Positions 55,055-63,717 of a DNA stretch of 64,000 bases are shown here, piece by piece; position 1 is the first letter of the stretch, and each line of letters starts with the position of its first letter. This DNA comes from Escherichia phage RCS47: sequence record NC_042128.1; one strand, 5' to 3'. The notes under the pieces were generated by a model that was not told where the DNA came from, made no database searches, and saw only the letters and a list, made by a program, of their open reading frames with translations. The translations under genes were made by a program, and so were the position numbers.

Positions 55055-55241
55055 AATTATGCCTCACTGTATTGACAACACAGAGCCTGAAGCTCTGACC
55101 TACTGTTTCACCCATGATCCATGCTGGGGTAATCTAACAACATTGCGCTGTGTGTAAGATGAGCAATGCATAGGGAAGGTGCGAACAAGTTCCTGATATG
55201 AGATCATCATATTCATCCGGAGCGCATCCCAGAGGGACATC

Positions 55242-56222
55242 ATGAGCCATCAACTCACCTTCGCCGATAGTGAATTCAGCACTAAGCGCCGTCAGACCCG
55301 AAAAGAGATTTTCCTCTCCCGCATGGAGCAGATTCTGCCATGGCAGAATATGACCGCTGTCATCGAGCCGTTTTATCCCAAGGCGGGCAATGGCCGACGG
55401 CCCTATCCGCTGGAGACCATGCTGCGTATTCACTGCATGCAGCATTGGTACAACCTGAGCGACGGTGCCATGGAAGATGCCCTGTACGAAATAGCCTCCA
55501 TGCGCCTGTTTGTCCGATTATCCCTGGATAGCGCCCTGCCGGATCGCACCACCATCATGAATTTCCGCCACCTGCTCGAGCAGCATCAACTGGCCCGTCA
55601 ATTGTTCAAGACCATCAATCGCTGGCTGGCCGAAGCAGGCGTCATGATGACCCAGGGCACTTTGGTGGATGCCACCATCATTGAGGCACCCAGCTCTACC
55701 AAGAACAAAGAGCAGCAACGCGATCCGGAGATGCATCAGACCAAGAAAGGCAATCAGTGGCACTTTGGCATGAAGGCCCACATTGGTGTCGATGCCAAGA
55801 GTGGCCTGACCCACAGCCTGGTCACCACCGCGGCCAACGAGCATGACCTCAATCAGCTGGGTAATCTGCTCCATGGAGAGGAGCAATTTGTCTCAGCCGA
55901 TGCCGGCTACCAAGGAGCGCCACAGCGCGAGGAGCTGGCCGAGGTGGATGTGGACTGGCTGATCGCCGAGCGTCCCGGCAAGGTAAAAACCTTGAAGCAG
56001 CATCCGCGCAAGAACAAAACGGCCATCAACATCGAATACATGAAAGCCAGCATCCGTGCCAGGGTGGAGCACCCGTTTCGCATCATCAAGCGGCAGTTCG
56101 GCTTCGTGAAAGCCAGATACAAGGGGCTGCTGAAAAACGATAACCAACTGGCGATATTATTCACCCTGGCCAACCTGTTTCGGGTGGACCAAATGATACG
56201 TCAGTGGGAGAGATCTCAGTAA
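55242..56222 (+). CDS. insH: IS5 transposase (DDE)
   Basis: 326 aa [24 protein letters not shown]...; identical to the copy at 62590. Confidence 0.95.
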
Positions 56223-56321
56223 AAACCGGAAATAACGCCAGAAATGGTGGAAAAAATAGCCTAAACAGGCTGATTCGATGTGTTTGCGGGAAAAAAATCG
56301 GCCCAGCTCCGCGAAATTTTA

Positions 56322-57090
56322 GGTAATGACTCCAACTTATTGATAGTGTTTTATGTTCAGATAATGCCCGATGACTTTGTCATGCAGCTCCACCGATTTT
56401 GAGAACGACAGCGACTTCCGTCCCAGCCGTGCCAGGTGCTGCCTCAGATTCAGGTTATGCCGCTCAATTCGCTGCGTATATCGCTTGCTGATTACGTGCA
56501 GCTTTCCCTTCAGGCGGGATTCATACAGCGGCCAGCCATCCGTCATCCATATCACCACGTCAAAGGGTGACAGCAGGCTCATAAGACGCCCCAGCGTCGC
56601 CATAGTGCGTTCACCGAATACGTGCGCAACAACCGTCTTCCGGAGCCTGTCATACGCGTAAAACAGCCAGCGCTGGCGCGATTTAGCCCCGACGTATCCC
56701 CACTGTTCGTCCATTTCCGCGCAGACGATGACGTCACTGCCCGGCTGTATGCGCGAGGTTACCGACTGCGGCCTGAGTTTTTTTAAATGGCGGAAAATCG
56801 TGTTGAGGCCAACGCCCATAATGCGGGCGGTTGCCCGGCATCCAACGCCATTCATGGCCATATCAATGATTTTCTGGTGCGTACCGGGTTGAGAAGCGGT
56901 GTAAGTGAACTGCAGTTGCCATGTTTTACGGCAGTGAGAGCAGAGATAGCGCTGATGTCCGGCGGTGCTTTTGCCGTTACGCACCACCCCGTCAGTAGCT
57001 GAACAGGAGGGACAGCTGATAGAAACAGAAGCCACTGGAGCACCTCAAAAACACCATCATACACTAAATCAGTAAGTTGGCATCATCACC
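56322..57090 (-). mobile_element. IS1 element (769 bp) nested in the right end of IS5 copy 1
   Basis: IS1 terminal IRs GGTAATGACTCCAACTTATTGAT...ATCAGTAAGTTGGCATCATCACC; 8-bp target duplication AAATTTTA (56314-56321 and 57091-57098). Confidence 0.9.
56337..57035 (-). CDS. insAB: IS1 transposase, fused InsAB' encoded without frameshift
   Basis: continuous 232-aa ORF; A-run is A7 (plus-strand T7 at 56778-56784) where I recall A6C in canonical IS1. Confidence 0.85.
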
Positions 57091-57209
57091 AAATTTTAAT
57101 CAGCGAGTCAACTTGGGAAGAAATGACCTGCTTATTCGCACCTTCCTTAGATTAACGCTGCGTGATATTTAATCTCAAATGATAATAAAGATGCGTTATC
57201 ATTTACATT

Positions 57210-57223
57210 TTGATAATGATCAC
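57210..57223 (+). promoter_or_regulatory. FNR-like box TTGATAATGATCAC upstream of the reductase operon
   Basis: 9/10 match to TTGAT-N4-ATCAA in AT-rich promoter region. Confidence 0.45.
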
Positions 57224-61197: not shown

Positions 61198-61251
61198 CCT
61201 GTGAGTGGCCGGTGTTTGCCCGGCCACCTCTGCTTTCAGGAGTGTTTAATC

Positions 61252-61848
61252 ATGCCTTCCCCAGCCGTACTGGTGCGTATTCTTGGTGCCCTGTTTTACT
61301 ATTCTCCCACGCGTCCTGAAGTTCGGGCACTGTTTGACTGTCTGCCGACATTGGATGAGATATACCCCTGGCGCGATCCCCGCCAGGTGGCTGAATTATG
61401 CTCTGACTGGTCAATCCCGGATGAGGAGCAGCATCTCTGGCAATTTTCTGTTCTTTTTGAAGGACAGGGTGAAATGCCAGCACCACCCTGGGGTTCGGTA
61501 TATCTCGAAAAAGATAATCTGTTGATGGGGGACAGCACTGCCGAGTACCGGAAGTTCCTTCGTGATCAGGGAATGACGTTTGATTCCTGTATAAATGAAC
61601 CGGAAGATCAGTTTGGCCTGATGCTGCTTGCCTGTAGCGCCTTGCTGGCAGAGGGGAAAGAACGCGCAGCGAATCAATTGCTGGAAACGCATTTGCTGCC
61701 GTGGGGATATCGTTATCTGGAGTTATTACAGCGCAACCCTGTCAGTGCGTTTTACGCGAAGTTGGCGCAGATTGCGACACTGTTTCTGCAGGATTATCAG
61801 CAGCAACAGGCACTAAATCCTCCAACCAAACGGCTCTTTCTTGGATGA
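61252..61848 (+). CDS. dmsD: Tat proofreading chaperone DmsD/TorD family
   Basis: ATG 61252 with AGGAG SD; motifs LGALFYY and PPWGSVYL. Confidence 0.8.
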   Translation: MPSPAVLVRILGALFYYSPTRPEVRALFDCLPTLDEIYPWRDPRQVAELCSDWSIPDEEQHLWQFSVLFEGQGEMPAPPWGSVYLEKDNLLMGDSTAEYRKFLRDQGMTFDSCINEPEDQFGLMLLACSALLAEGKERAANQLLETHLLPWGYRYLELLQRNPVSAFYAKLAQIATLFLQDYQQQQALNPPTKRLFLG

Positions 61849-62375
61849 GTAAGTCAGAAAATTATTATCAGGAGTTAATGTCTCATCGGTATGTTAGCCG
61901 ACGTGGGCTATTTCGGGCCTTTGTCAGCGCGGCACGCCCGGTAACAACACCGATATTACCTGTGCACTCCTTACCTCCCGGCGCGTTACCTGATGCGCAG
62001 TTTCGTGTGCAGTGCACGCAGTGTGATTTGTGTATTAATGCCTGTCCCATGGGCATTCTCAACCGGCATGAAGATGGCTATCCGCAATTGGTGATTGAAT
62101 TTGCCAGTTGTGACGGCTGCGGCTTATGTATAGCTGCATGTTCCACTGAGGCATTACGTCCGCAGGCTCGTTTCGACACCGGATTGCGTCCCGTTTTTAA
62201 AGCAAATTGTGTTAATCCGGTGCGCAGTTGCAAACAGTGTGTCGATCTATGCCCACTTCAGGCATGCTCAATCAACGAAAGCGGAATGCCTGTAATCGAT
62301 GCTGCAATATGTAATGGTTGCGGTGAATGTTTGGTTCAGTGTGGTTATGACGCGGTAAAACTTGAGATGGTGTGA
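61845..62375 (+). CDS. ferredoxin-type protein with four 4Fe-4S motifs (NapF-like)
   Basis: ATGA overlap with dmsD; four C-x2-C-x2-C-x3-CP-type clusters. Confidence 0.75.
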   Translation: MSKSENYYQELMSHRYVSRRGLFRAFVSAARPVTTPILPVHSLPPGALPDAQFRVQCTQCDLCINACPMGILNRHEDGYPQLVIEFASCDGCGLCIAACSTEALRPQARFDTGLRPVFKANCVNPVRSCKQCVDLCPLQACSINESGMPVIDAAICNGCGECLVQCGYDAVKLEMV

Positions 62376-62521
62376 GGGGCAGGGTGGAACACTCTTTGCG
62401 TTAACAGATTTCACTTGATGACCTGGAAATTATTATTTCCATGAATAAGTATTCTTATCCGCATGGAAAATATGCGCACAATTATCCTGCGATAATAATG
62501 AAAATCATCTGCTTTTTTTAG

Positions 62522-63717
62522 GGAAGGTGCGAACAAGTTCCTGATATGAGATCATCATATTCATCCGGAGCGCATCCCAGAGGGACATCATGAGCCATCA
62601 ACTCACCTTCGCCGATAGTGAATTCAGCACTAAGCGCCGTCAGACCCGAAAAGAGATTTTCCTCTCCCGCATGGAGCAGATTCTGCCATGGCAGAATATG
62701 ACCGCTGTCATCGAGCCGTTTTATCCCAAGGCGGGCAATGGCCGACGGCCCTATCCGCTGGAGACCATGCTGCGTATTCACTGCATGCAGCATTGGTACA
62801 ACCTGAGCGACGGTGCCATGGAAGATGCCCTGTACGAAATAGCCTCCATGCGCCTGTTTGTCCGATTATCCCTGGATAGCGCCCTGCCGGATCGCACCAC
62901 CATCATGAATTTCCGCCACCTGCTCGAGCAGCATCAACTGGCCCGTCAATTGTTCAAGACCATCAATCGCTGGCTGGCCGAAGCAGGCGTCATGATGACC
63001 CAGGGCACTTTGGTGGATGCCACCATCATTGAGGCACCCAGCTCTACCAAGAACAAAGAGCAGCAACGCGATCCGGAGATGCATCAGACCAAGAAAGGCA
63101 ATCAGTGGCACTTTGGCATGAAGGCCCACATTGGTGTCGATGCCAAGAGTGGCCTGACCCACAGCCTGGTCACCACCGCGGCCAACGAGCATGACCTCAA
63201 TCAGCTGGGTAATCTGCTCCATGGAGAGGAGCAATTTGTCTCAGCCGATGCCGGCTACCAAGGAGCGCCACAGCGCGAGGAGCTGGCCGAGGTGGATGTG
63301 GACTGGCTGATCGCCGAGCGTCCCGGCAAGGTAAAAACCTTGAAGCAGCATCCGCGCAAGAACAAAACGGCCATCAACATCGAATACATGAAAGCCAGCA
63401 TCCGTGCCAGGGTGGAGCACCCGTTTCGCATCATCAAGCGGCAGTTCGGCTTCGTGAAAGCCAGATACAAGGGGCTGCTGAAAAACGATAACCAACTGGC
63501 GATATTATTCACCCTGGCCAACCTGTTTCGGGTGGACCAAATGATACGTCAGTGGGAGAGATCTCAGTAAAAACCGGAAATAACGCCAGAAATGGTGGAA
63601 AAAATAGCCTAAACAGGCTGATTCGATGTGTTTGCGGGAAAAAAATCGGCCCAGCTCCGCGAAATTTTAATCAGCGAGTCAGCTTGGGAAGAAATGACCT
63701 GCTTATTCGCACCTTCC
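62522..63717 (+). mobile_element. IS5-family element copy 2 (1196 bp, intact)
   Basis: same IRs as copy 1; flanks TTAG (left) and ATAG (right). Confidence 0.9.
62590..63570 (+). CDS. insH: IS5 transposase (DDE)
   Basis: identical 326-aa product to 55242-56222. Confidence 0.95.

Follow-up and report, generated by a model that had tools for sequence, protein, structure and literature searches.

How a complete operon for anaerobic respiration comes to lie in the immunity region of a phage-plasmid, and by what route it travels, is the question raised by Escherichia phage RCS47 (sequence record NC_042128.1), of which a stretch of 64,000 nucleotides, hereafter the window, was analysed. In the window, a dms-type operon of five genes is bracketed by two directly repeated copies of the insertion sequence (IS) ISKpn26, and the whole unit lies within imcA, in the immC region. 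We show that the catalytic gene of the operon is a mosaic and that the arrangement is common, and we lean towards a route in which the unit is gained by recombination at a resident ISKpn26. To this explanation as a whole, which covers the identity of the module, its history, the way it docks and its effect on the phage, we assign a probability of roughly 0.6. A reading made previously without database searches, referred to here as the original prediction, had recognized a P1-type phage-plasmid carrying IS-bounded cargo, and the collinearity of the window with P1 from immI to lox agrees with it.

An ISKpn26-bounded unit interrupts imcA of a P1-like phage-plasmid

Comparison of the window with itself revealed that positions 55171-56321 and 62519-63669 (1151 bp) are 100% identical and in direct orientation, and gave a second match, between 57091-57150 and 63662-63721. 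The right copy (62522-63717, + strand) is an intact element of 1196 bp, preceded by TTAG (62518-62521) and followed by ATAG (63718-63721); its ends, GGAAGGTGCGAACAAG and CTTATTCGCACCTTCC, match as terminal inverted repeats at 15 of 16 positions, and its transposase open reading frame (ORF; 62590-63570, + strand) specifies 326 aa. The left copy (55174-57146, + strand; transposase ORF at 55242-56222, + strand) is interrupted and spans 1973 bp, with positions 1-1148 of the IS at 55174-56321 and the final 48 bp at 57099-57146. The interruption is an IS1 on the - strand (56322-57090, 769 bp; NF033558 match), 98.7% identical to the IS1 of P1, whose 8-bp target duplication, AAATTTTA, was read directly from its ends at 56314-56321 and 57091-57098. 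The original prediction had described two identical direct 1196-bp copies of an IS5-family element. The copies are indeed direct and of the IS5 family, and the right one has that length, but the left one does not, and the two differ by one base within their last 49 bp (57111 A versus 63682 G). Moreover, a 1196-bp copy starting at 55174 and a cargo starting at 57147 leave 777 bp unexplained, the nested IS1 having been missed.

The transposase is an IS5-family DDE enzyme (NF033581, 366 bits for the left copy against a cutoff of 140). The window copies are about 92% identical to the IS5 of P1 mod749::IS5, and identical copies in RefSeq records carry the label ISKpn26; judged from its sequence, the element is ISKpn26, a member of the IS5 family, and not IS5 proper. 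A 4-bp target duplication accompanies it, with ATAG/ATAG surrounding lone copies in four plasmid records (L025-L028) and in phage phi456, and CTAG/CTAG surrounding lone copies in L032 and L033.

The ISKpn26 pair encloses exactly 5375 bp (57147-62521), the length originally predicted. Direct reading likewise bore out the ATAG outer flanks (55170-55173 and 63718-63721) and the TTAG inner flanks (57147-57150 and 62518-62521). The overall layout is ATAG / ISKpn26::IS1 / TTAG-operon-TTAG / ISKpn26 / ATAG, within imcA of a P1-like phage-plasmid. This is an architecture of the composite type: two IS copies around a cargo, and a single target duplication around the whole, which is ATAG here and CTAG in the chromosome of strain LR-46 (see below).

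About 39 kb of the 64 kb align collinearly with P1, from the immI region to lox, at 93-99% identity and with several replaced segments. This collinearity, the immC/lox alignment and the readable operator sequence identify the window as part of a P1-like phage-plasmid (Punavirus), a group marked by immC (c1, coi and their operators), lox, pacAB, and late and replication genes in P1 order. When positions 55174-63721, that is the insert and one ATAG, are removed, the remainder aligns without gaps to c1-coi-imcB-imcA-lox of phiW39 and P1, which confirms the contiguous backbone that had been expected. Placement of the insert between coi and loxP was right as to the region and too coarse as to the site, which corresponds to P1 nt ~94521, within P1 imcA (94482-94595; P1 annotation transferred). 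The gene is split into a 3' part of 40 nt (55134-55173, - strand), which ends at the left ATAG, and a 5' part of 74 nt (63722-63795, - strand), mapped by projecting the P1 annotation onto the alignment.

The nested IS1 has a peculiarity of its own. At its programmed-frameshift motif (56775-56800) it has a run of seven T (56780-56786; A7C on the coding strand), where the sister plasmid L001, the IS1 of P1 and the Salmonella plasmid pSGB23 have six. The one extra T in this homopolymer accounts for the length of 769 bp and for the fusion of InsA and InsB into a single ORF, InsAB' (56337-57035, - strand, 232 aa); either the transposase is constitutively fused, or the seventh T is an error made in sequencing the homopolymer.

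The cargo is predicted to encode an FNR-activated DmsABC-type molybdoenzyme

Five intact ORFs, all on the + strand and all with profile matches, make up the cargo, in accordance with the catalytic, Fe-S, anchor, DmsD and NapF-like genes named by the original prediction. The first encodes a DmsA-type catalytic subunit of 811 aa (57353-59788; TIGR02166, 1131.7 bits, cutoff 777.7), and is followed by genes for a DmsB-type four-cluster Fe-S subunit of 208 aa (59802-60428; TIGR02951, 277.8 bits, cutoff 214.1) and a DmsC-type membrane anchor of 258 aa (60421-61197; Pfam PF04976 DmsC, 122 bits). The fourth gene codes for a DmsD-type proofreading chaperone of the twin-arginine translocation (Tat) pathway (61252-61848; NF008632, 163.8 bits, cutoff 162; PF02613), which is 198 aa long when the RefSeq start is used, and whose ORF can be extended to a GTG at 61201. 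The last encodes a NapF-like poly-ferredoxin of 176 aa (61845-62375; Pfam Fer4 dicluster domains), with several 4Fe-4S motifs and, at its N-terminus, a twin-arginine-like motif, SRRGLF. DmsA itself has the Tat leader motif SRRDAV, the FS0 cysteines CLVNCGSRC and a molybdenum-ligand serine, Ser198, aligned with S199 of STM4305.

STM4305 (STM14_5178) of Salmonella, to which the cargo DmsA is 81% identical, is its nearest studied relative. An orthologue of E. coli DmsA, YnfE or YnfF was considered and ruled out: identity to these proteins is 49-50%, and the scores against the NCBIfam 'exception' models are about half the cutoffs (DmsA 897.7 of 1600, YnfE 929.8 of 1675, YnfF 867 of 1650). On these sequence comparisons the enzyme belongs to the STM4305 clade, and not to the clades of E. 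coli DmsA or YnfE/F.

The control region of the operon (57147-57352, + strand) begins with the inner TTAG (57147-57150) and includes a 9/10 half-match to the FNR site at 57210 and, at 57259-57272, a perfect FNR box, TTGATcataATCAA, where only an FNR-like box had been noted before. It is the sole perfect site in the 64 kb, with 0.14 expected by chance. For what follows, the window operon is called variant 1, the allele of other P1-like plasmids variant 2, and the IS-free chromosomal allele of E. coli VREC0864 variant 3. The box is at the same distance from the ATG in STM4305 (88.5 versus 87.5 bp), where it is also perfect, as it is in variant 2; its position is conserved in STM4305 and in variants 2 and 3. 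A scan of the region for consensus promoters and terminators was uninformative, with five promoter-like sites found against 12.4 expected.

Taken together, the family models, the motifs and the nearest homologue predict an FNR-activated, membrane-bound and periplasm-facing DmsABC-type molybdoenzyme. DmsA would be loaded with its cofactor in the cytoplasm with the help of its own DmsD and probably also of the NapF-like ferredoxin, which, by analogy with E. coli NapF, probably aids maturation of the catalytic subunit before export. DmsA would then be exported by Tat together with DmsB, and would receive electrons from menaquinol through DmsC. As a default guess, the substrate would be dimethyl sulfoxide (DMSO) or another S- or N-oxide. 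Supplied in trans, STM4305 supports DMSO-dependent anaerobic growth, although it is not the main DMSO reductase and is regarded as a weak or alternate one (bioRxiv 10.1101/2022.11.29.517730). STM14_5178 is also reported to be one of the loci most strongly activated by FNR, and the Salmonella dmsA paralogues have been proposed to reduce sulfate (2025 preprint, PMC12636705).

The dmsA gene is a mosaic of two alleles

A profile of identity along the operon showed that variant 1 is 99-100% identical to variant 2 everywhere except at ~57700-59780. This segment, ~2.1 kb of dmsA, is 100% identical to variant 3 and only 65-83% identical to variant 2, so that DmsA residues 1 to ~133 are of the variant-2 type and residues ~134-792 of the variant-3 type. 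The Tat leader, dmsB, dmsC, dmsD and the ferredoxin gene stayed of the plasmid-borne type (variant 2). The alignments thus show a recombinant operon, whose dmsA core has given way to a sequence 100% identical to an E. coli allele that is chromosomal and rare. Among the exchanged residues are those beside the molybdenum-ligand serine (YSNAQNFTATSY versus YSTAQIGAATPY), and the leader that was retained should be the one that the cognate DmsD recognises.

Variant 3 was rejected as a plasmid-borne allele: the whole variant-3 operon is absent from PLSDB and occurs in two of 5426 complete E. coli genomes, in both of them on the chromosome. Nor was a native donor found. Among one genome per GTDB species, searched with DmsA peptides, the best match was Intestinirhabdus alba, at 85% amino acid and 75% nucleotide identity, and a search of 5.8 billion proteins with DmsC returned a cluster at 100% followed by matches at no more than 82%, the best of them from Citrobacter. 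The single donor lineage that had been anticipated thus gives way to a mosaic of two alleles, 20-35% different from each other over the exchanged stretch of dmsA, neither of which was found in a native host species.

The arrangement is common among sequenced E. coli plasmids

In PLSDB, matches to the 5.4-kb cargo were found in 72 plasmids, of which 29 reach an identity of 99% or more, and at least 54 PLSDB records show the c1-to-lox arrangement with the operon. The whole 10-kb c1-to-lox arrangement, nested IS1 included, was found at 99.8-99.9% identity in at least 21 PLSDB plasmids from E. coli and E. fergusonii, many of them of poultry origin. For comparison, the coi-lox region is matched by 702 PLSDB records, and in 569 of the 702 it is uninterrupted. 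Some allele of the operon is present in 76 of the 5426 complete E. coli genomes, in 49 plasmid and 27 chromosomal places; in these genomes, 37 records are at least 99% identical to the window operon, versus 36 records at 80-90% identity. By plain count, many of the listed isolates came from poultry. The arrangement is therefore common and already sequenced in E. coli, no one-off, and to call it unusual, as the original prediction did, was an overstatement.

The unit is also present on pSGB23 (L029), an IncHI-type conjugative plasmid of 254 kb from Salmonella Saintpaul. This plasmid has the variant-1 operon and, on its left, the same IS1 and a short remnant of the right end of ISKpn26, the remaining left ISKpn26 being gone; the outer flank of its right ISKpn26 is TTAA. 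Since the same IS1 and the remnant are present, a derivative of the IS1-bearing form has evidently reached a conjugative plasmid of another genus.

The unit and lone ISKpn26 copies are found at the same sites

The cargo occurs in forms A, B and C, which have the right outer junction in common; the inner junctions of form A differ from those shared by B and C. In form A (L002, L018) the donor DNA is continuous through both TTAGs, which extends a further 76 bp to the left and 243 bp to the right, and the extra DNA is bounded by IS1 and by ISKpn26 at TTAA. Because form A is continuous through both TTAGs, these mark two separate ISKpn26 insertions at preferred targets. The inner TTAG pair had been offered as part of a pattern that fits, as one of two routes, recombination of an IS5-containing circle into a resident IS5; as proof of a circle with a single IS it was rejected, both TTAGs being part of continuous donor DNA in form A. 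At the left end of form A (L002 5451, L018 10190) an IS1 is found in place of the left ISKpn26. Its boundary is only 4 bp from the ISKpn26 insertion point (…gagcaatgc/IS1 versus …gagcaatgcatag/ISKpn26), so that the endpoints nearly coincide, and no matching duplication surrounds this IS1.

The same ATAG of imcA is occupied by a lone ISKpn26, with the same duplication, in phi456 and in at least 30 P1-like plasmids, which come from E. coli, E. marmotae and Cronobacter. By backbone single-nucleotide polymorphisms (SNPs), lone-IS and composite plasmids are interleaved: neither flank differs between pS143-2, a form-C plasmid, and the lone-IS plasmid pLR-46_1 (0 differences), the flanks of form A show 0-1 differences from another lone-IS plasmid, and forms B and C, with the same inner junctions, have the most distant backbones by flank SNPs.

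A second site shows the same two states. The LR-46 chromosome (L031) has the unit, with CTAG perfectly duplicated on its two sides, in a Tn7-like class 2 integron element that adjoins pstS, and this CTAG site holds a lone ISKpn26 in three other replicons (L032 and L033 among them). The P1-like plasmid of LR-46 itself, pLR-46_1 (L025), has a lone ISKpn26 only, in flanks identical to those of composite-bearing plasmids. The IS alleles of LR-46 are mosaic and fit no simple reciprocal exchange. Elsewhere, chromosomal units beside hsdR have the same inner junctions and no duplication, their flanks being CTTG or TTAG versus CTAA. The possibility that chromosomal copies are pieces of integrated P1-like plasmids was discarded, as they share only IS-operon-IS with the window, and the adjacent hsdRSM genes are not in it. 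An attempt to derive polarity from IS SNPs failed as well: the alleles are mosaic, and neither simple deletion nor integration by a single crossover accounts for LR-46 and the window.

The occurrence of two sites, each as a lone IS and as IS-cargo-IS, supports docking. We propose that, in a P1-like lineage, the ATAG of imcA first received a single ISKpn26, that this resident copy then became a docking site by homology, and that the IS and operon would be gained, lost and swapped by recombination between ISKpn26 copies, either through a circle of IS and cargo or through a double crossover. Chromosomes and other plasmids could be reached by the unit in the same way. The outcome resembles that of IS26-type translocatable units, in which an IS and its cargo join a replicon with a resident IS to give IS-cargo-IS within the duplication of the resident. 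The IS26 reaction is conservative and catalysed by the transposase; we know of no such activity for ISKpn26, and RecA-dependent recombination is assumed here as the docking route.

The insert is predicted to uncouple coi from its promoter

To the left of the insert, on the - strand, are the c1 repressor gene (53883-54734; 95-97% identical to c1 of P1 and phiW39, and annotated as 'phage repressor protein C1' in identical records), coi, for the C1 inactivator (54845-55054; aligned with annotated phiW39 and P1 coi), and imcB (55020-55115; coordinates mapped from the P1/phiW39 annotation). To its right are the sigma-70 promoter P1coi, formerly P99d (63834-63863, - strand; P1 annotation), the C1 operator Oc1d (63841-63857), which reads taatttattagagcaat, the reverse complement of ATTGCTCTAATAAATTA, and the left half of lox (63984-64000, + strand; ataacttcgtatagcat), which matches the annotated lox of P1 and phiW39 and at which the window ends.

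According to the P1 annotation, P1coi/Oc1d control c1, coi and imcBA. They are now 8.5 kb from imcB-coi, with antisense IS and operon sequences between, whereas the c1-proximal promoter Pc1 and operator Oc1ab are untouched. As the insert uncouples coi from P1coi/Oc1d, it should lower the C1-regulated expression of coi. On the - strand, an ORF of 103 aa (55134-55445) starts in the end of the left ISKpn26, crosses the terminal repeat outward and stops at the imcA stop codon; a transcript along it could continue into imcB-coi and replace the lost P1coi input. A disturbance of c1/coi control, as originally suggested, is plausible with coi parted from P1coi/Oc1d, but it is tolerated. Phage phi456, from avian pathogenic E. 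coli, shows high spontaneous induction, is released spontaneously at ~10^7 plaque-forming units/ml and forms plaques, and it carries a lone ISKpn26 at the same imcA ATAG; hence phage production clearly survives the disruption of immC. With the composite, the genome gains 8.5 kb, and plasmids with the identical structure measure 112-175 kb, versus 94.8 kb for P1.

Weighing the routes of acquisition

Transposition of a composite en bloc and recombination into a resident IS, the alternatives posed by the original prediction, are still the two live options, and under either route the unit depends on its ISKpn26 copies to move. En bloc, two ISKpn26 copies at donor TTAGs would have mobilized the 7.8-kb unit into the ATAG of imcA and duplicated it, and the lone-IS plasmids would be later deletion products or independent insertions at a hot spot. 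This would produce the perfect ATAG/ATAG seen here and the perfect CTAG/CTAG in the LR-46 chromosome, would make the inner TTAGs ordinary preferred targets in continuous donor DNA, and agrees with the unit keeping its own IS alleles, outer parts included, in both the P1 and the Tn7 contexts; in addition, IS5-type elements are able to reuse exact target sites. However, both duplication sites hold lone ISKpn26 copies in the same orientation elsewhere, which is a coincidence unless there is docking by homology; form A has a different inner junction with the same outer one; other copies of the unit have no duplication; and ATAG deviates from the YTAR pattern of every other junction examined. We therefore rate en bloc transposition as a serious contender that is probably not the answer, and favour docking at a resident ISKpn26 with a little better than even confidence, a small share being left for other routes. 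A different history would have form A arriving once and being trimmed in situ to B and C by ISKpn26 insertions at the inner TTAGs and IS-IS deletions, the products then passing among P1-like backbones by recombination in flanking phage DNA and not in the IS. Form A is indeed the less derived, with the 76 bp and 243 bp of donor DNA missing from B and C, and P1-like backbones are visibly mosaic; yet four extra events are required, and units with the same inner junctions in chromosomes, in a Tn7-like element and on an IncHI plasmid are left unexplained, so that we think this history unlikely. It is quite unlikely, too, that the operon is a passive and possibly non-functional passenger, and that what matters is the rewiring of immunity control by an IS in imcA. 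In keeping with such a view, lone IS and composite occur at the site about equally often, coi is uncoupled from P1coi/Oc1d by the insert, and E. coli already has DmsABC and YnfEFGH. Against it stand the five intact ORFs with conserved catalytic motifs and FNR box, the preservation of the operon at 99.9-100% across dozens of plasmids and 27 chromosomes, and the fact that a productive, in-frame exchange of the dmsA core is as widespread as the original allele (the 37 versus 36 records given above). Finally, identical repeats of 1.15 kb are a classic source of misassembly, and a collapsed or misjoined IS repeat could give a false composite; the same four junctions recur in chromosomes and in at least 21 complete plasmids assembled independently, and the two copies can be told apart by the nested IS1 and by the base at which they differ. 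The 10-kb structure is thus not an assembly collapse, a risk the original prediction had raised, and the chance of any such artefact is negligible.

Several points weigh against the explanation that we prefer. Both here and in LR-46, the outer parts of the two IS copies have the alleles that go with the variant-1 unit (482 G, 1093 C, 1134 C) and not the 'common' alleles of the lone-IS sites. Such outer alleles fit movement en bloc or call for later gene conversion, as a single crossover into an IS of the common type would not give them; gene conversion between IS copies does occur, the window copies being identical over 1151 bp where those of a sister plasmid differ at three sites. Perfect 4-bp duplications at two independent sites, ATAG and CTAG, are also what en bloc transposition predicts, and the lone-IS plasmids could be deletion products of the composite and not its ancestors, no polarity having been established. 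As to the enzyme, the functional reading of the operon draws on sequence features and homologues, the margin of the DmsD model is slim (163.8 versus 162 for NF008632), the ferredoxin scores 94.5 bits with TIGR00402, under the cutoff of 102.2, and is NapF-like only, and the substrate of the STM4305 clade is unsettled, being disputed between the DMSO study and the sulfate preprint.

Other segments that differ from P1

Between pacB and c1, the window has an extra ~1.7 kb (52158-53882) that is not in P1. It includes a gene for a full-length antirepressor-like protein of 371 aa with ORF6N and KilAC domains (52735-53850), the 3' part of which (53509-53834) is 86% identical to 2771-3096 in the ant region of immI; sister plasmids keep only a KilAC fragment, adjoining IS1, at this position. 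Three further segments, 4966-7342, 12874-17581 and 41197-46773, gave no hit to P1 with megablast. In the second of them, other DNA stands where P1 has parAB-repA, which implies a different replicon type. The third inserts 5.6 kb between pmgT and phd, near which related plasmids have a type I restriction-modification system.

Relation to known systems and significance

The closest known system is STM4305-STM4308 (STM14_5178-5181), the 'alternate' DMSO reductase of Salmonella Typhimurium. Both loci have the order dmsA-dmsB-dmsC-dmsD and a perfect FNR box that is equally far from the start codon, and they are ~76% identical in nucleotide sequence, with amino acid identities of 81% for DmsA, 79% for DmsC (STM4307) and 72% for DmsD (STM4308). 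The Salmonella locus, however, is a fixed chromosomal one beside a DcuS-like two-component system, without a trailing NapF-like ferredoxin and without IS flanks, whereas the DmsA of the window is a chimera of two other alleles. With dmsABC and ynfEFGH-dmsD of E. coli K-12 the operon shares the subfamily model TIGR02166 and the architecture, namely a Tat-exported subunit with FS0 and a molybdenum-bis(pyranopterin guanine dinucleotide) cofactor, a four-cluster subunit and a menaquinol anchor. Identity to the K-12 proteins is 49-50% for DmsA, ~60% for DmsB and 37-40% for DmsC, and the window operon combines a single catalytic subunit with a DmsD of its own and an additional ferredoxin; the difference from the ynfEFGH-dmsD layout had been correctly noted.

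Gain of cargo by IS activity is known for P1-type backbones, as in JL22, with blaCTX-M-55 and IS1380/IS5 (PMC9603915, PMC6906374), where the cargo is a resistance gene and not a respiratory operon. P1 itself has an IS5 with a 4-bp duplication, in mod749::IS5. The imcA/immC site is not among the five variable regions, RD1-5, listed for P1-like elements (PMC6906374), and searches of the accessible papers, with full-text look-ups, returned none linking P1-like plasmids or ISKpn26 to a dms-type operon.

All the parts described here are of known kinds, and current understanding is not overturned. What is added is the mosaic catalytic gene, the assignment to the STM4305 clade with its conserved FNR site, the lone and composite states at two sites, and the prevalence of the arrangement. 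The existence of both states at two loci offers a tractable case for separating IS5-family transposition from docking by homology. A reading that joins all of this would have the imcA ISKpn26 as a reusable dock, through which a P1-like lineage shuttles a respiratory module among phage particles, chromosomes and conjugative plasmids; exchanges of the DmsA core, with leader and chaperone kept, would give new substrate ranges that aid E. coli in the anaerobic poultry gut, and the uncoupling of coi would bias the phage towards the plasmid state. In its entirety we consider this reading doubtful. Discussion of phage-plasmids has mostly been about the resistance genes that they carry; in the present case, the cargo of a P1-like lineage is an intact operon for anaerobic respiration. 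If the enzyme is active, the operon would be an auxiliary metabolic gene set able to travel by phage, plasmid or chromosome, and its variant-1 and variant-2 alleles would amount to a natural experiment on the substrate specificity of the STM4305 clade, which is poorly understood.

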